A model generated the notes under the pieces. That model was not told the DNA's origin. It saw only the letters and a program-made list of their open reading frames with translations, and made no database searches. This document shows, in pieces, positions 654 to 55,007 of a stretch of 64,000 nucleotides of DNA (its first letter is position 1; each line of letters starts with the position of its first letter). Both the position numbers and the translations under genes were made by a program. This DNA is from Escherichia coli (GTDB taxonomy: Bacteria > Pseudomonadota > Gammaproteobacteria > Enterobacterales > Enterobacteriaceae). Location of the stretch: the NCBI RefSeq assembly GCF_048403405.1, contig NZ_CP183129.1; one strand, given 5' to 3'.

Positions 654-970
654 AAATTCTCCTGTAAAACGCGGAATATACCGTACCTCTTAGCGGGGAA
701 AAACAGGGTTATGCGGCAACGTCGAAATTAAATGTGATCTGCCACGCCTTTTATCACAAAAGTGTCTCCGGAAGTACGATGCAAATTTGCCTGGCAAAAT
801 AAGGATAATCAACATATTACGAATCGCTGCACACCTGTGCTGATGACTACTACGCAGAGAAACAAATGTGCAAGAGAAAGCGCTATTTCTCCCCATGCAA
901 AGAGTGAAAAATCGCTTTGAAAGGCCATCATGATGGGGTTATATCAGATCAAGCGGTGAGAAAGCGTATT

Positions 971-984
971 TGCACAAATGTGCA
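971..984. promoter_or_regulatory. Perfect 14-bp palindrome TGCACAAATGTGCA just upstream of the sorC start; candidate operator
   Basis: Palindrome read directly; ends 16 bp before the sorC ATG at 1001, with the AGGAGG RBS between them. Confidence 0.3.
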
Positions 985-1000
985 GAACCAGGAGGCGGCA

Positions 1001-1948
1001 ATGGAAAACAGTGACGATATCCGTTTGATTGTGAAGATTGCCCAACTCTATTACGAACAGGATATGACGCAGGCGCAAATCGCGCGCGAACTGGGTATTT
1101 ACCGCACCACCATCAGCCGCTTGCTTAAACGAGGCCGCGATCAGGGAATTGTCACCATCGCCATCAACTATGACTACAACGAAAATCTCTGGCTGGAGCA
1201 GCAACTGAAGCAAAAGTTTGGCCTGAAAGACGTTGTGGTGGTGTCGGGAAATGATGAGGATGAAGAGACTCAACTGGCGATGATGGGGTTACACGGCGCG
1301 CAACTGCTGGATCGCTTGCTGGAGCCTGGCGATATTGTCGGTTTTTCCTGGGGTCGCGCGGTGAGCGCACTGGTTGAAAACTTGCCGCAGGCGGGGCAAT
1401 CGCGGCAGTTAATCTGCGTACCAATTATTGGCGGACCGTCCGGTAAACTCGAAAGCCGCTATCACGTAAACACATTAACCTACAGCGCGGCAGCGAAGCT
1501 GAAAGGGGAATCGCATCTCGCAGATTTTCCGGCTCTGCTGGATAACCCCTTAATTCGTAATGGGATCATGCAGTCTCAGCACTTTAAAACCATCTCTGCC
1601 TACTGGGATAATCTGGATGTCGCCCTGGTGGGAATTGGCTCACCGGCCATTCGCGACGGCGCTAACTGGCATGCGTTTTATGGTGGTGAAGAGAGTGACG
1701 ACCTGAATGCCCGCCAGGTTGCTGGCGATATTTGCTCGCGCTTTTTTGATATTCACGGCGCAATGGTTGAAACGAATATGAGCGAAAAAACACTCTCTAT
1801 CGAAATGAATAAATTAAAGCAGGCGCGGTATTCCATTGGCATTGCCATGAGTGAAGAAAAATACAGCGGAATTGTTGGTGCACTGCGTGGAAAATATATT
1901 AATTGTCTGGTAACGAATAGCAGCACAGCTGAACTATTACTGAAATAA
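1001..1948 (+). CDS. sorC: SorC-family transcriptional regulator of the sorbose operon
   Basis: Track ORF 917-1948; likely true start is internal ATG at 1001 (MENSDDIRLIVKIAQLYYEQDMTQAQIARELGIYRTTISRLLKRGRDQGIV) preceded by AGGAGG. HTH N-terminus plus sugar-binding domain; first gene of a sorCDFBAME-like cluster. Confidence 0.8.
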   Translation: MENSDDIRLIVKIAQLYYEQDMTQAQIARELGIYRTTISRLLKRGRDQGIVTIAINYDYNENLWLEQQLKQKFGLKDVVVVSGNDEDEETQLAMMGLHGAQLLDRLLEPGDIVGFSWGRAVSALVENLPQAGQSRQLICVPIIGGPSGKLESRYHVNTLTYSAAAKLKGESHLADFPALLDNPLIRNGIMQSQHFKTISAYWDNLDVALVGIGSPAIRDGANWHAFYGGEESDDLNARQVAGDICSRFFDIHGAMVETNMSEKTLSIEMNKLKQARYSIGIAMSEEKYSGIVGALRGKYINCLVTNSSTAELLLK

Positions 1949-2017
1949 AAATCTTCCCGATGTTTACCGTAATAAAAATTACGGCGGGTCCCTATTATCT
2001 AAAATCAGGAGTCTGTT

Positions 2018-2824
2018 ATGCAAACGTGGTTAAATTTGCAGGATAAAATCATTATCGTCACCGGCGGCGCATCCGGTATTGGTCTGGCGATTGTAGAGGA
2101 ATTATTAGCACAAGGCGCAAACGTACAGATGGTAGATATTCACGGTGGCGATGGTCAATATGAAGGTCATAAAGGCTATCAGTTTTGGCCGACCGATATT
2201 TCCAGCGCCAAAGAGGTAAATCATACGGTAGCGGAAATTATCCAGCGTTTTGGTCGCATCGACGGTCTGGCCAATAACGCCGGGGTCAATTTCCCGCGTC
2301 TGCTGGTCGATGAGAAAGCGCCTGCCGGGCAGTATGAACTCAACGAAGCTGCATTCGAAAAAATGGTCAATATCAACCAGAAAGGCGTTTTTCTGATGTC
2401 GCAGGCGGTGGCGCGACAGATGGTCAAACAACATGATGGCGTGATTGTGAATGTTTCCTCAGAAAGTGGGCTGGAAGGCTCAGAAGGCCAAAGCTGTTAC
2501 GCCGCGACCAAAGCCGCGCTCAATAGCTTCACGCGCTCCTGGTCGAAAGAGCTGGGTAAGCACGGTATCCGTGTGGTCGGTATCGCGCCAGGGATTCTGG
2601 AAAAAACAGGACTGCGCACGCCGGAATATGAAGAAGCGCTGGCGTGGACGCGCAATATCACCGTCGAGCAGCTGCGTGAAGGCTATACCAAAAATTCCAT
2701 TCCTATTGGGCGCGCCGGAAGATTAGCAGAAGTGGCTGATTTTGTTTGTTATCTGCTGTCTGAACGCGCCAGCTATATCACCGGAGTAACCACTAACATT
2801 GCAGGCGGCAAAACGCGCGGCTAA
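2018..2824 (+). CDS. sorD: Short-chain dehydrogenase/reductase, sorbitol-6-phosphate dehydrogenase-like
   Basis: 268 aa with N-terminal TGGASGIGLA Rossmann motif and a downstream catalytic Y-x3-K motif (YAATK); RBS AGGAG upstream; position in operon. Confidence 0.8.
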   Translation: MQTWLNLQDKIIIVTGGASGIGLAIVEELLAQGANVQMVDIHGGDGQYEGHKGYQFWPTDISSAKEVNHTVAEIIQRFGRIDGLANNAGVNFPRLLVDEKAPAGQYELNEAAFEKMVNINQKGVFLMSQAVARQMVKQHDGVIVNVSSESGLEGSEGQSCYAATKAALNSFTRSWSKELGKHGIRVVGIAPGILEKTGLRTPEYEEALAWTRNITVEQLREGYTKNSIPIGRAGRLAEVADFVCYLLSERASYITGVTTNIAGGKTRG

Positions 2825-2833
2825 GGAGGCTTT

Positions 2834-3241
2834 ATGGTCAATGCCATTTTTTGCGCCCACGGCAAATTAGCCTGCGCCATGCTGGAATCGGTTCAGATGG
2901 TGTACGGCGATGCCAGGGTCGAGGCAGTTGAATTTGTGCCCGGCGAGAACGCCGGAGACATTGTGGCAAAGCTGGAGAAGTTAGTGAGCATTCACAATCA
3001 TGGCGAGTGGCTAATTGCCGTGGATTTACAGTGCGGTAGCCCGTGGAATGCAGCAGCGACGCTTGCGATGCGCAATCCGCACCTGCGGGTGATCAGCGGC
3101 CTTTCCCTGCCACTGGCGCTCGAACTGGTTGATAACCAGGACAGCATGAATGTTGATGAACTGTGTGAACACCTGACGCAAATCGCAAAGCAAACCTGCG
3201 TTGTCTGGAAACAACTGGCAACAGCGGAGGAGGATTTCTGA
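2834..3241 (+). CDS. sorF: PTS mannose/sorbose-family EIIA component
   Basis: 135 aa, MVNAIFCAHGKLA...; EIIA-Man fold signature with conserved His; RBS AAGGAGG. Confidence 0.8.
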   Translation: MVNAIFCAHGKLACAMLESVQMVYGDARVEAVEFVPGENAGDIVAKLEKLVSIHNHGEWLIAVDLQCGSPWNAAATLAMRNPHLRVISGLSLPLALELVDNQDSMNVDELCEHLTQIAKQTCVVWKQLATAEEDF

Positions 3242-3735
3242 TGAACATTACGCTCGCCCGCATTGATGACCGCCTGATCCACGGTCAGGTCACTACCGTC
3301 TGGTCGAAAGTGGCTAACGCCCAGCGCATTATTATCTGCAATGACGAAGTTTATAACGATGAAGTTCGCCGGACATTATTGCGTCAGGCTGCGCCACCGG
3401 GAATGAAGGTTAACGTGGTCAATATTGAAAAAGCCGTCGCGGTTTATCACAACCCGCAATATCAGGACGAAACCGTTTTTTATCTTTTCACTCGCCCACA
3501 GGATGCCTTAGCGATGGTTCGCCAGGGGGTAAAAATAGACACCCTGAATATTGGCGGCATGGCCTGGCGGCCCGGTAAAAAACAGTTAACCAAAGCGGTT
3601 TCATTAGATGATGATGATATTAACGCATTTTATGAGTTAAATAATCTTGGCGTCATACTGGATTTACGCGTCGTAGCGTCAGATCCCTCAATCAATATTA
3701 TCGACAAAATAAACGAACAGTTAATCGCAAATTAA
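3241..3735 (+). CDS. sorB: PTS mannose/sorbose-family EIIB component
   Basis: 164 aa, MNITLARIDDRLIHGQV... (EIIB-Man motif with phosphorylatable His); start overlaps sorF stop (TGATG). Confidence 0.8.
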   Translation: MNITLARIDDRLIHGQVTTVWSKVANAQRIIICNDEVYNDEVRRTLLRQAAPPGMKVNVVNIEKAVAVYHNPQYQDETVFYLFTRPQDALAMVRQGVKIDTLNIGGMAWRPGKKQLTKAVSLDDDDINAFYELNNLGVILDLRVVASDPSINIIDKINEQLIAN

Positions 3736-3800
3736 ATAATAGCGCCTGTGTACATATGCTTTAACAGGCAGGGATGACGACACTTAAAAGGTGACAAATC

Positions 3801-4598
3801 ATGGAAATAAGTACCCTACAAATCATTGCTATATTTCTTTTTTCCTGTATTGCCGGAATGGGCAGCGTGCTGGATGAATTTCAGACTCATCGCCCGTTAA
3901 TTGCCTGTACGGTGATTGGTTTAATTCTCGGTGATTTAAAAACCGGAATAATACTCGGTGGTACGCTGGAATTGATAGCTCTCGGCTGGATGAACGTCGG
4001 CGCGGCGCAATCTCCAGATTCTGCACTCGCCAGCATAATCTCCGCCATTCTGGTTATCGTTGGTCAGCAAAGCATCGCCACCGGAATCGCCATCGCGTTG
4101 CCTGTGGCTGCGGCAGGCCAGGTGCTGACGGTGTTTGCCCGTACCATCACAGTAGTGTTCCAGCACGCGGCGGATAAAGCAGCAGAAGAGGCGCGGTTTC
4201 GCACTCTCGATATTCTGCATGTCTCCGCGCTTGGCGTGCAGGCGCTGCGCGTTGCTATTCCGGCACTGATTGTCTCGCTGTTCGTCAGCGCCGATATGGT
4301 CAGCAATATGTTAAACGCCATTCCCGAATTTGTGACCCGAGGACTACAGATTGCTGGCGGTTTTATCGTGGTGGTCGGTTACGCCATGGTGCTACGTATG
4401 ATGGGCGTGAAATATTTGATGCCTTTCTTTTTCCTCGGTTTCCTCGCAGGTGGCTACCTCGATCTCAGTCTGCTGGCGTTCGGTGGCGTCGGCGTGATCA
4501 TGGCCCTGCTCTACATCCAGCTAAATCCACAGTGGCGTAAAGCTGAACCTCAACTCCAGGCCACCGCCTCCACCGCCCTTGACCAACTTGACGATTAA
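3801..4598 (+). CDS. sorA: PTS mannose/sorbose-family EIIC membrane component
   Basis: 265 aa hydrophobic multi-pass protein, ManY-like. Confidence 0.8.
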   Translation: MEISTLQIIAIFLFSCIAGMGSVLDEFQTHRPLIACTVIGLILGDLKTGIILGGTLELIALGWMNVGAAQSPDSALASIISAILVIVGQQSIATGIAIALPVAAAGQVLTVFARTITVVFQHAADKAAEEARFRTLDILHVSALGVQALRVAIPALIVSLFVSADMVSNMLNAIPEFVTRGLQIAGGFIVVVGYAMVLRMMGVKYLMPFFFLGFLAGGYLDLSLLAFGGVGVIMALLYIQLNPQWRKAEPQLQATASTALDQLDD

Positions 4599-4608
4599 CG
4601 GAGCCATC

Positions 4609-5433
4609 ATGGAACAGAGAAAAATTACACGCAGCGATCTGGTGAGCATGTTTCTGCGCTCCAACCTGCAACAGGCGTCCTTTAACTTTGAACGTATTCA
4701 CGGGCTGGGTTTTTGCTACGACATGATCCCCGCCATCAAGCGACTTTACCCATTAAAAGAGGATCAGGTTGCGGCGCTCAGGCGACACCTGGTGTTCTTC
4801 AATACCACGCCAGCCGTATGTGGCCCGGTCATCGGCGTCACTGCCGCCATGGAAGAGGCGCGGGCCAACGGCGCGGAAATTGATGACGGTACCATTAACG
4901 GCATCAAAGTCGGTCTGATGGGACCATTGGCAGGAGTTGGCGATCCACTGGTCTGGGGAACGCTGCGCCCGATTACCGCCGCGCTCGGCGCATCTCTGGC
5001 ACTTTCGGGCAACATTCTCGGCCCGCTGCTGTTTTTCTTTATTTTCAATGCGGTGCGTCTGGCGATGAAGTGGTATGGCCTACAGCTCGGCTTTCGCAAA
5101 GGGGTGAATATCGTCAGCGATATGGGCGGGAATGTGCTGCAAAAACTCACCGAAGGCGCGTCGATTCTCGGACTGTTTGTGATGGGCGTGCTGGTGACCA
5201 AATGGACGTCAATCAACGTACCGTTGGTGGTTTCACAAACGCATGCCGCCGATGGCTCCACCGTCACCATGACCGTGCAGAACATTCTCGACCAACTTTG
5301 CCCTGGTTTGCTGGCGCTCGGTCTGACGCTACTGATGGTTCGTCTGCTCAACAAAAAAATTAACCCGGTATGGCTGATTTTCGCCCTGTTTGGCTTAGGG
5401 ATTATCGGCAATGCGCTGGGCTTCCTGTCCTGA
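4609..5433 (+). CDS. sorM: PTS mannose/sorbose-family EIID membrane component
   Basis: Track ORF 4579-5433; start taken at ATG 4609 (MEQRKITRSDLVSMFLRSNLQQASFNFERIHGLGF, ManZ-like N-terminus) with GGAG RBS. Confidence 0.75.
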   Translation: MEQRKITRSDLVSMFLRSNLQQASFNFERIHGLGFCYDMIPAIKRLYPLKEDQVAALRRHLVFFNTTPAVCGPVIGVTAAMEEARANGAEIDDGTINGIKVGLMGPLAGVGDPLVWGTLRPITAALGASLALSGNILGPLLFFFIFNAVRLAMKWYGLQLGFRKGVNIVSDMGGNVLQKLTEGASILGLFVMGVLVTKWTSINVPLVVSQTHAADGSTVTMTVQNILDQLCPGLLALGLTLLMVRLLNKKINPVWLIFALFGLGIIGNALGFLS

Positions 5434-5484
5434 TTCTTCGCCCCGGCACGACTGCCGGGGCCATCGCTCAACATGAGGTGGTTT

Positions 5485-6714
5485 ATGAAAACAACAGCTC
5501 TGCGTCTTTATGGTAAACGTGATTTACGCCTGGAAACCTTTGATCTTCCTGAAATGCAGGAGGATGAAATCCTCGCGACGGTGGTCACCGACAGCCTGTG
5601 CCTCTCTTCCTGGAAAGAGGCCAATCTGGGTGAAAATCATAAAAAAGTACCCGACGATGTGGCGACCAACCCCATCATCATCGGCCACGAGTTTTGCGGC
5701 GATATTCTGGCCGTGGGTAAAAAGTGGCAGCACAAATTCCAGCCGGGTCAGCGTTATGTGATTCAGGCCAACCTGCAACTCCCCGACCGCCCGGACTGCC
5801 CCGGCTACTCCTTCCCGTGGGTAGGCGGCGAAGCGACGCATGTGGTTATTCCCAACGAGGTCATGGAACAAGATTGCCTGCTGGCATACGACGGCGAAAC
5901 CTATTTTGAAGGCTCGCTGGTTGAACCGCTTTCCTGCGTGATTGGCGCGTTCAACGCCAACTATCATCTTCAGGAAGGTAGTTATAACCACACGATGGGG
6001 ATTCGCCCGCAAGGGCGCACGCTGATCCTCGGCGGCACCGGACCAATGGGACTGTTGGCGATTGATTATGCGTTGCATGGACCGGTTAACCCGTCGCTGC
6101 TCGTCATTACCGATACCGACAACGACAAATTGAGTTATGCGCGCAAGCACTATCCATCAGAACCGCAAACACTGATTCATTATCTCAATGCCGCCGATGC
6201 AGCATTTGATACGTTAATGGCACTGAGTGGCGGTCACGGCTTCGATGATATTTTCGTCTTTGTGCCTAATGAAGGACTGGTGACTCTCGCCTCTTCCTTG
6301 CTGGCGACAGATGGTTGCCTGAATTTCTTCGCCGGACCGCAGGATAAACATTTCAGCGCGCCAATTAATTTCTACGATGTGCATTATGCATTTACCCACT
6401 ACGTGGGCACGTCAGGCGGCAATACCGATGACATGCGCGCAGCAGTCAAATTGATTGAAGAGAAAAAAGTGCAGGCCGCAAAAGTGGTAACACATATTCT
6501 TGGGCTGAATGCCGCGGGCGAAACCACGCTTGAATTGCCTGCCGTCGGCGGCGGCAAAAAGCTGGTGTATACCGGGAAATACCTGCCGCTTATGTCACTC
6601 ACGCAGATTCAGGATCAAGCACTGGCGGCAATTCTGGCGCGTCATCAGGGGATCTGGTCCGGTGAGGCGGAGCAATATCTGCTCACTCATGCAGAGGCAA
6701 TTTCCCATGATTAA
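5485..6714 (+). CDS. sorE: Zinc-dependent alcohol dehydrogenase-family enzyme, sorbose-1-phosphate reductase-like
   Basis: Track ORF 5473-6714; start taken at ATG 5485 (MKTTALRLYGKRDLRLE) after GAGGTGG RBS. MDR/zinc-ADH family, last gene of the sor cluster. Confidence 0.7.
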   Translation: MKTTALRLYGKRDLRLETFDLPEMQEDEILATVVTDSLCLSSWKEANLGENHKKVPDDVATNPIIIGHEFCGDILAVGKKWQHKFQPGQRYVIQANLQLPDRPDCPGYSFPWVGGEATHVVIPNEVMEQDCLLAYDGETYFEGSLVEPLSCVIGAFNANYHLQEGSYNHTMGIRPQGRTLILGGTGPMGLLAIDYALHGPVNPSLLVITDTDNDKLSYARKHYPSEPQTLIHYLNAADAAFDTLMALSGGHGFDDIFVFVPNEGLVTLASSLLATDGCLNFFAGPQDKHFSAPINFYDVHYAFTHYVGTSGGNTDDMRAAVKLIEEKKVQAAKVVTHILGLNAAGETTLELPAVGGGKKLVYTGKYLPLMSLTQIQDQALAAILARHQGIWSGEAEQYLLTHAEAISHD

Positions 6715-14749: not shown

Positions 14750-18659
<3,910 letters not shown>

Positions 18660-18698
18660 TTAATTCGCCCCTCGCCTTACGGAAAGGGGCGTTGGTTG

Positions 18699-21902: not shown

Positions 21903-22832
21903 TTAATCCAGCGTTGGGTTCATGTGCCGTAGATCGTATGGCGTGATCTGGTAGACGTAATAGTTGAGCCAGTTGGTAAACAGCAAATTACCGTGACTAC
22001 GCCAGCTCGCTCGAGGTGTATTTTGCGGATCATTGTGCGGGAAATAGTTATACGGTACATCCGGATCTAGTCCGGCTTCCACATCGCGGAAAAATTCCTG
22101 CGCCAGCGTTTGCGCATCATATTCGGGATGGCCCGTCACAAAGGCAATGCGCTTATCTTTGCTGGCAAACAGATATGCGTCCCCTTCTTCCGTCTCTGCC
22201 AGAATTTCCAGATCGGTGTAATCACGAATCAACGCTGCCGGAAAGTCAGCATAGCGCGAATGCGGTGCCAGGAATGAATCATCAAAGCCACGCGTCAGAA
22301 GCGCATGAGGATGGAGAATATGATGCTCGTAAACGCCAGAGAGTTTGTCGGTGCGAGTTTGTTTAGGAATGCCGTAGAGGATATTGAGCGCGGCCTGTAC
22401 CGCCCAGCAGACAAACAGCGTCGAGGTGACGTGATCTTTCGACCACTCCAGCACCTGTTTGATCTGCGGCCAGTAAGCGACATCATTAAACTCCACCAGG
22501 CCCAGCGGCGCGCCGGTAACTATCAGACCGTCAAAGTTTTGTTCCTGAATATCTTCAAAGTTACAGTAGAAGTTATTCAGATGCTCTGCGGGCGTGTTGC
22601 GCGATTCACGGGAATCGATGCGCAACAGCTGAATATCGACCTGCAAAGGTGAGTTTGAAAGCAGGCGCAGAAACTGATTTTCAGTTTCGATCTTCTTCGG
22701 CATCAGGTTAAGGATAAGCACCTTTAGCGGACGAATTTCCTGACCAGACGCGCGAGAAGTTGTCATCACAAAGACGTTTTCTTCACGCAAGAAATTGACG
22801 GCGGGTAGCTCGTCCGGCACACGAATCGGCAT
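21903..22832 (-). CDS. metA: Homoserine O-succinyltransferase
   Basis: 309 aa, [51 protein letters not shown]... Confidence 0.95.
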
Positions 22833-22852
22833 AACCTGATTACCTCACTACA

Positions 22853-22878
22853 TACGCTTATACGTTTAGACATCCAGA
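22853..22878 (-). promoter_or_regulatory. Candidate MetJ met-box repeats in the metA promoter
   Basis: Minus strand CTGGATGTCTAAACGTATAAGCGTAT contains tandem 8-mers resembling AGACGTCT; assignment from family knowledge. Confidence 0.3.
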
Positions 22879-22988
22879 TAGCTGAAGATAACCAGAAAAT
22901 TTGCCAATGTCGAGCCTGCATGTTGAAGGTGAGAAAGTTTCAAGGAAAAGGCTACGTTAGAATATAAGAATGACGAAAAGGAGAGAAA

Positions 22989-23432
22989 ATGGTTATTAGT
23001 ATTCGCCGCTCACGGCATGAGGAAGGGGAGGAACTGGTTGAGATTTGGTGCCGTTCTGTCGATGCCACTCACGATTTTTTATCAGCAGAGTATCGGGCCG
23101 AGCTGGAAGAGCTGGTGCGTTCCTTCCTGCCGGAAGCGCCGTTGTGGGTCGCGGTTAATGAGCGGGATCGGCCGGTTGGGTTTATGTTGTTAAGTGGGCA
23201 GCATATGGATGCGCTGTTTATCGATCCTGATGTGCGCGGCTGCGGCGTGGGTCGGATGCTGGTGAAGCATGCGCTCTCAATGGCCCCGGAACTGACAACC
23301 AATGTTAATGAGCAAAATGAGCAGGCGGTTGGGTTCTATAAGAAGGTGGGTTTTAAGGTTACGGGACGCTCTGAGGTGGACGATTTGGGGAAACCGTATC
23401 CATTGCTGAATCTGGCGTATGTGGGGGAATAA
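22989..23432 (+). CDS. yjaB: GNAT-family N-acetyltransferase
   Basis: 147 aa with acetyl-CoA-binding motif (RGCGVGRMLVKHAL). Confidence 0.85.
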   Translation: MVISIRRSRHEEGEELVEIWCRSVDATHDFLSAEYRAELEELVRSFLPEAPLWVAVNERDRPVGFMLLSGQHMDALFIDPDVRGCGVGRMLVKHALSMAPELTTNVNEQNEQAVGFYKKVGFKVTGRSEVDDLGKPYPLLNLAYVGE

Positions 23433-23504
23433 GCTGCCCCTGCCGTGCCTGCCCAGGCTGGAGAAGACGCGCCAGCGTCGCACCCGGCATTTTTTTCACC
23501 AACG

Positions 23505-23535
23505 CAAAAAGGCCATCCTGACGGATGGCCTTTCG
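23505..23535 (-). terminator. rRNA operon terminator downstream of 5S
   Basis: Minus-strand hairpin GGCCATCCGTCAGGATGGCC followed by TTTTTGCGTT. Confidence 0.7.
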
Positions 23536-23544
23536 CTTAATTTG

Positions 23545-23664
23545 ATGCCTGGCAGTTCCCTACTCTCGCATGGGGAGACCCCACACTACCATCGGCGCTA
23601 CGGCGTTTCACTTCTGAGTTCGGCATGGGGTCAGGTGGGACCACCGCGCTAAGGCCGCCAGGCA
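23545..23664 (-). rRNA. rrf: 5S ribosomal RNA
   Basis: 120 nt; reverse complement of ATGCCTGGCAGTTCCCTACTCTCGCATGGGGAGACCCCACACTACCATCGGCGCTACGGCG... matches E. coli 5S. Confidence 0.95.
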
Positions 23665-23758
23665 AATTCTGTTTTATTAACCCGCTTGTCGCCGGTTAAT
23701 TTAATCTGTATCAGGCTGAAAATCTTCTCTCAATCCGCCAAAACAGCTTCGGCGTTGT

Positions 23759-26662
<2,904 letters not shown>

Positions 26663-26855
26663 TCACAACCCGAAGATGTTTCTTTCGATCCATCATCGTG
26701 TTGCGAAAATTTGAGAGACTCACGAACAACTTTCGTTGTTCAGTGTTTCAATTTTCAGCTTGATCCAGATTTTTAAAGAGCAAATATCTCAAACATCACC
26801 CGAAGATGAGTTTTGAGATATTAAGGTCGGCGACTTTCACTCACAAACCAGCAAG

Positions 26856-54932: not shown

Positions 54933-54968
54933 AGCGCAAAAAGGCTGGTGACTAAAAAGTCACCAGCC
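54933..54968 (-). terminator. rplL-rpoB intergenic transcriptional attenuator
   Basis: Minus-strand hairpin GGCTGGTGACTTTTTAGTCACCAGCC followed by TTTTTGCGC, about 40 bp downstream of the rplL stop. Confidence 0.7.
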
Positions 54969-55007
54969 ATCAGCCTGATTTCTCAGGCTGCAACCGGAAG
55001 GGTTGGC

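Follow-up and report, generated by a model that had tools for sequence, protein, structure and literature searches.

The yjaA-negative allele between yjaB and the rrnE operon in an Escherichia coli of inferred phylogroup D: a terminator-type hairpin and a REP-like palindrome

Introduction

For about two decades yjaA has served as an Escherichia coli phylotyping marker, and it is one of the four markers in the standard phylotyping PCR. In the RefSeq record of K-12 MG1655, the gene (b4011, 4213234-4213617, plus strand) lies between the 5S rRNA gene rrfE (4213040-4213159) and yjaB (b4012, 4213680-4214123, minus strand), which is where the initial annotation of the locus studied here had placed it. 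The rrfE–yjaB gap of K-12 measures 520 bp and comprises an rrnE terminator of its own (CCCCGGTCCATAAGGCCGGGG, then a T run), the 127-codon yjaA, and a 62-bp spacer separating yjaA from yjaB. A second familiar system is the tail of the rrnB operon, whose T1–T2 dual terminator region is used in the pKK and pTrc vectors.

Here, we describe the corresponding junction in a 64-kb stretch of E. coli DNA (64,000 nucleotides, analysed at its full length and called the window below), in which yjaB and the 5S gene are separated by a short spacer without yjaA. We consider its anatomy, the marker genotype of the genome that carries it, the distribution of its alleles in E. coli and related genera, and the explanations that might account for it.

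Anatomy of the yjaB–rrfE junction

Read in the reverse of the K-12 orientation, the window carries rluF, a sor operon, pepE, yjbB, metH, iclR, arpA, aceK, aceA, aceB, metA, yjaB and rrnE (5S, 23S, tRNA-Glu, 16S), and it runs unbroken from yjaB through 5S, 23S and tRNA-Glu to 16S. The yjaB gene, encoding a GNAT acetyltransferase, is an open reading frame on the plus strand at 22989-23432 (stop codon 23430-23432; NCBIfam equivalog NF007807, E 3e-83) and is annotated at identical coordinates in strain MS 69-1. On the minus strand, rrfE occupies 23545-23664 by alignment to the 120-nt K-12 gene, with the Rfam RF00001 call spanning 23547-23662 on the same strand at 93 bits; it shares 118 of 120 positions with K-12 rrfE, the differences falling at adjacent positions 12-13, where AG becomes CT, giving GGCCTTAGCG. 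The initial annotation had put the gap between the two genes at about 110 bp, and its exact size is 112 bp (23433-23544, from the yjaB stop at 23432 to rrfE at 23545).

The same annotation considered yjaA absent from this gap, and we found none in the whole 64 kb by tblastn, blastn or a scan for primer sites. Searches with K-12 yjaA returned noise only (best E about 4 and 0.3 for tblastn and blastn, respectively), and the window offers no site within 4 mismatches to either the yjaA.1b/yjaA.2b pair or the older Clermont primers for yjaA. The pairwise alignment with K-12 that had been proposed as a check puts the K-12 gap at 520 bp, not about 110 bp, and shows the two sequences to be near-identical in 5S and in yjaB, with no homology in the stretch that separates these genes. 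Because unrelated sequence takes the place of the K-12 segment, the two alleles are alternative haplotypes, not the two states of a simple indel.

The 112-bp spacer, the yjaA-less short allele, is made up of two elements: a hairpin of the rrnB T2 type that would serve rrnE, and a REP-like palindrome with a run of seven T residues that faces yjaB. The initial annotation had described the spacer as holding just the terminator hairpin; the hairpin is indeed present, but the palindrome and the T7 run are there as well. The hairpin lies at 23506-23533 (minus strand; stem 23511-23518 / 23523-23530, loop 23519-23522, with A5 and T3 flanks), was matched by a scan for terminator-like sequences, and is stable in folds of both strands; the scan marked it on the plus strand alone, owing to the way it counts the stem. 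Read on the minus strand from the 3' end of 5S, the RNA is CAAAUUAAGCGAAA-GGCCAUCC-GUCA-GGAUGGCC-UUUUUGCGUU, in which GGCCAUCC-GUCA-GGAUGGCC forms an 8-bp GC-rich stem that is extended by A·U pairs and followed by U5. Together with its flanks, this hairpin can be aligned to T2 in the tail of rrnB of K-12, and the motif ACGCAAAAAGGCCATCC..GGATGGCC adjoins 5S at the matching site in Salmonella, Citrobacter, Klebsiella, Pseudocitrobacter, Kosakonia and Phytobacter.

The imperfect palindrome (23447-23489; GCCTGCCCAGGCTGGAGAAGACGCGCCAGCGTCGCACCCGGCA) resembles a REP element in that its core, 23460-23485, agrees with 24 of 26 positions of a REP core. The same core as in the window recurs in K-12 between aceA and aceK and in two intergenic stretches of Sakai (O157), and less degenerate, canonical REPs stand at the matching position in O157:H7, E. 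albertii, Salmonella, Citrobacter, Klebsiella and Pseudocitrobacter. A Y-type REP consensus does not match anywhere in the window. On the plus strand, the paired REP arms fold directly upstream of the T7 run at 23490-23496, which would be the tail of an intrinsic terminator for yjaB.

Both strands thus carry the sequence pattern of an intrinsic terminator, a GC-rich stem-loop followed by a U run in the case of the rrnE hairpin on the minus strand and the REP stem followed by U7 on the plus strand. From this pattern, the minus-strand transcript of rrnE is predicted to end at the GC-rich 8-bp hairpin and U5, in the manner of rrnB T2, and the plus-strand transcript of yjaB to run into the REP-like palindrome and U7, so that the spacer would hold two convergent terminators, one for rrnE (the hairpin) and one for yjaB (the REP stem with U7).

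Several observations were made on the surroundings of the junction. The spacer between aceA and aceK measures 48 bp in the window (18651-18698) and 182 bp, with a REP, in K-12, and that of IAI39 holds an IS1397 insertion. In SMS-3-5 (NC_010498.1) and about 20 further genomes, a transposase of the IS3 family splits yjaB into two annotated acetyltransferase fragments, lengthening the match span from 1133 bp to 2394 bp. Rfam models scored above their gathering thresholds at two other places in the window: StyR-44 at 26670-26778, just upstream of the rrnE 23S gene, and "Pseudomonas sRNA P26" at 54942-55003 on the minus strand, in the ribosomal-protein region on the rpoB side.

As for the protein that the window does not encode, K-12 YjaA has no Pfam match above threshold and no sequence match in the PDB, and its NCBIfam match is NF041448 only. 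Residues 36-98 of YjaA align with residues 80-133 of E. coli MreB (64 positions, 38% identical; pairwise E 3e-8), and YjaA may represent a divergent piece of an actin-like fold.

Marker genotype and lineage

Two of the quadruplex marker sites can be read from the window itself. The presence of arpA, reported by the initial annotation, holds: the gene is an intact open reading frame of 731 codons on the plus strand at 14750-16945, in agreement with the MS 69-1 annotation and syntenic with K-12 arpA, and the AceK.f/ArpA1.r primer sites (16925-16944 and 17305-17324) match exactly and define an in-silico amplicon of 400 bp (16925-17324). The target region of the ArpAgpE primers (15144-15444) carries one mismatch per primer, at the 3' terminal base, as it does in K-12, and the O157:H7 sequence matches these primers exactly and yields 301 bp; by these 3' mismatches the window does not belong to phylogroup E.

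Primer sequences, product sizes and the assignment table were confirmed in Tables 7-10 of PMC9854720. The primers were validated on reference genomes, giving 211 bp for yjaA and 400 bp for arpA in K-12, 301 bp for ArpAgpE in O157:H7 and 288 bp for chuA in Sakai, and in the negative control IAI39 (phylogroup F) iclR stands directly beside aceK, without arpA. In the Clermont 2013 table, every B2 and every F profile is arpA-negative and K-12 is arpA+ yjaA+ (PMC9854720), so the arpA+ yjaA− genotype of the window supports the non-K-12, non-B2 lineage that the initial annotation had suggested.

The status of chuA, and that of yjaA genome-wide, was approached through close relatives. Positions 1-23432 of the window are about 100% identical to six complete genomes (TUM1226, MS 69-1, TUM14771, GN02461, 4621 and OX030728), the next best reaching 98.7%, and five of the six are also 100% identical across the yjaB–5S junction. 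These siblings were typed with chimeric queries in which a clade-specific metA–yjaB stretch was joined to a marker amplicon and the places matched were counted in each genome. With the Sakai chuA amplicon, a second place was matched in 6/6 sibling genomes, chuA itself lying outside the window, and the controls behaved correctly (one place in K-12, BL21 and O111; two in O157). With yjaA, only the metA–yjaB place was matched in the six siblings, genome-wide. We infer that the source genome belongs to phylogroup D, being arpA+ and yjaA−, negative for the E-specific allele, and probably chuA+, as read from the sibling genomes. Either value of TspE4.C2 fits phylogroup D, and this marker is not needed to split D from A, B1, B2 and F given arpA+ chuA+ yjaA−. 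A search of the literature on MS 69-1, GN02461, TUM1226 and TUM14771 found no statement of their phylogroup.

Two further features of this flank were noted. In RefSeq, PGAP gives the name espL4, "type III secretion system effector EspL4", to the gene called arpA in K-12, and does so in MS 69-1 and O157:H7 and in many genomes besides. The functions suggested by arpA and espL4 lie far apart, and the arpA of the window (14750-16945) has no NCBIfam HMM match at E ≤ 0.01. Between rluF and pepE, at 917-6714, the window holds an L-sorbose PTS operon (regulator, SDR oxidoreductase, IIA/IIB/IIC/IID and sorE, following the MS 69-1 annotation), which we take to be missing from K-12. Coverage of positions 1-23432 reaches 80% or more in only 2860 of 5425 genomes, consistent with a variable sor operon and a variable arpA.

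Distribution of the alleles in E. coli

Of 5426 complete E. coli genomes, 2594 (47.8%) carry yjaA and 2832 are without it. Among those without it, 833 carry a 284-bp spacer, and the remainder, about 2000 by subtraction, have the short spacer or another form. In a spread sample searched with a 444-bp query, this remainder gave match spans of 274-284 bp, as in O111:H8, O157:H7 and HUSEC2011; alignments of O111:H8 and O157:H7 revealed the same junction as in the window, and the spacer of IAI39 is also short. The short spacer is the commonest yjaA-less state in E. coli. A reading of it as rare, suggested by the finding of only 5 genomes 100% identical across the junction and by next-best matches with 170 extra bp, was overturned by the population counts and the alignments: the clade is rare, not the allele.

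The 284-bp form is nearly base for base the tail of K-12 rrnB, that is, 5S, the T1 hairpin, a remnant segment at whose end the 5S 3' end is repeated, and T2. The sequence ATTTGATGCCTGGCAGTT, which in the window covers the 5S 3' end at 23540-23557, occurs twice in the 284-bp allele, as a direct repeat around the 170 bp (T1 and the 5S remnant) that the window is without. The dual T1 + T2 terminator of the rrnB type is not found in the window, which has the T2-type hairpin only, joined straight to 5S. The absence of these 170 bp between the two ATTTGATGCCTGGCAGTT copies would fit recombination, or gene conversion, between tails of rrn operons.

The junction in related species and genera

Outgroups were collected with YjaB as the anchor, at one genome per species, and their loci were scanned for YjaA and 5S. 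This search returned neither E. fergusonii nor the main E. coli representative, and E. albertii TW07627 was recovered by a separate contig search. In this E. albertii genome, the spacer measures 110 bp and contains the same REP and hairpin, but no yjaA. Moreover, yjaA is absent, and a REP and the conserved hairpin are present, in Escherichia sp. E1V33, in S. enterica arizonae and diarizonae, and in Citrobacter, Klebsiella and Pseudocitrobacter, with S. enterica diarizonae carrying a long T1–remnant–T2 tail. Since E. albertii has the short spacer in common with E. coli, the yjaA-less state would predate E. coli, which favours its retention in the window lineage over a loss by allelic replacement.

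The haplotype that bears yjaA also extends beyond the species. The gene stands at the same site, convergent with yjaB, in Phytobacter (66% amino-acid identity) and Kosakonia (65%). Homologues that are 63% identical, in contigs whose protein NCBI names from S. enterica subsp. salamae, and 72% identical, in a metagenome-assembled genome, are convergent to yjaB–metA–aceB at contig ends (two Logan contigs and GCA_002421005.1), and more distant proteins of the YjaA family were found in Citrobacter youngae, Pectobacterium and Pseudomonas. As yjaA is at the site in Phytobacter, Kosakonia, the salamae-type contigs and the metagenome-assembled genome, the yjaA-bearing haplotype is old too, and both states recur at this site in Escherichia and in Salmonella.

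A separate observation concerns E. whittamii Sa2BVA5 (NZ_JACSQI010000001.1), which is 90-95% identical to K-12 over aceB–metA. Starting in the spacer that separates metA from yjaB, and on across yjaB, yjaA and 5S, the identity rises to 98-100%, and its YjaA has 100% amino-acid identity to that of K-12. This step in identity suggests that the yjaB–yjaA tract was acquired recently by recombination, with an E. coli strain as donor.

Tentatively, and with somewhat less than even confidence, we suggest that having or lacking yjaA at the rrnE–yjaB junction is an ancient polymorphism that spans genera, not a gain or loss specific to E. coli, and that its alleles cross species by recombination in the conserved flanks, to which the E. 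whittamii tract points. If so, the yjaA marker would sit in a recombination-prone site beside an rRNA operon, and the window would carry the older Escherichia allele.

Origin of the short allele in the window

We are confident that the 112 bp of the window are a normal yjaA-negative allele, most likely an old Escherichia state that has been kept, and neither a fresh deletion nor an artefact. With E. albertii holding the same yjaA-less haplotype, the window lineage would simply have retained it. Errors of assembly deserve mention at such a site, as rRNA operons often break or mis-join assemblies and most of the draft outgroup contigs stop at this very 5S gene. A collapse or mis-join at the operon boundary nevertheless has next to no probability here: the identical junction occurs in five independent complete genomes, the architecture is common to about 2000 complete E. 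coli genomes and E. albertii, and the window is continuous from yjaB through 16S. A recent loss of yjaA, in which homologous recombination in the yjaB and rrn flanks exchanged a K-12-like haplotype for the yjaA-less allele of another strain, can draw on the E. whittamii Sa2BVA5 tract as a sign that alleles are exchanged at this site; moreover, outside the six-genome clade the closest genomes over 22830-23760 carry the 284-bp tail, so that the state of the tail tracks the flanks imperfectly. Such a loss is improbable all the same, because the closest relatives in the metA–yjaB flank, including SMS-3-5, CE10 and IAI39 of phylogroup F, are without yjaA genome-wide, nothing places a yjaA-bearing ancestor near the window lineage, and the short allele is common to E. 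albertii.

A further question is how the short form itself arose in this clade. The 170 bp might have been deleted independently from the 284-bp form by slippage or recombination between the ATTTGATGCCTGGCAGTT repeats, instead of the short allele having been inherited. The repeat structure would make such an event easy, and outside the clade the best matches to yjaB and the neighbouring spacer have the 284-bp form, differing essentially by these 170 bp. The same junction is nonetheless found in phylogroups B1, E and F and in E. albertii, and inheritance of, or conversion from, a short allele explains the pattern equally well, so we regard an independent deletion as a possibility worth keeping in mind but an unlikely one. 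Retention of the old short allele remains our preferred account of the window.

Significance

The spacer of the window is the textbook yjaA-negative state, already known, and nothing new in kind. Together with arpA, the absence of yjaA gives a quick lineage call (D-like, not K-12 or B2), useful as a label for the window but of no biological consequence beyond that. Three points are perhaps little appreciated: the negative allele is a conserved module of REP and terminator-type hairpin common to E. albertii, not an empty deletion; long and short variants of the rrn tail coexist; and the yjaA tract appears transferable between Escherichia species, a caveat to treating the marker as strictly clonal.

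Comparison with known systems

Set against the b4010-b4012 region of K-12, the window has the rrnE operon, yjaB, metA, aceBAK, arpA, iclR and metH in common order and orientation, with yjaB about 96% identical, and it differs in having an unrelated 112 bp (T2-type hairpin and REP-like palindrome) in place of the 520-bp segment with yjaA. In terms of the Clermont 2013 quadruplex, it holds two of the four marker sites and the E-specific target, with arpA at 400 bp, no yjaA product and a negative ArpAgpE, whereas chuA and TspE4.C2 lie outside it.

The T1–T2 tail of K-12 rrnB is matched in its T2 half, which aligns with the hairpin and flanks of the window, and the 284-bp rrnE allele of other D-like strains corresponds to the whole tail; unlike this tail, the window is without the 170 bp of T1 and 5S remnant, and what follows is the REP-like palindrome and yjaB, not murB. 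The closest counterparts are the short spacers of O157:H7 (E), O111:H8 (B1), IAI39 (F) and E. albertii, which measure 110-121 bp and have in common with the window a REP or REP-like palindrome, the T run, the ACGCAAAAAGGCCATCC..GGATGGCC hairpin and a 5S gene joined directly to it. What sets them apart from it is a small number of substitutions, located in the arms of the palindrome and in the loop of the hairpin, and the REP-like element of the window (GGGTGCGACGCTGGCGCGTCTTCTCC) is more degenerate than the copies of O157 and E. albertii.
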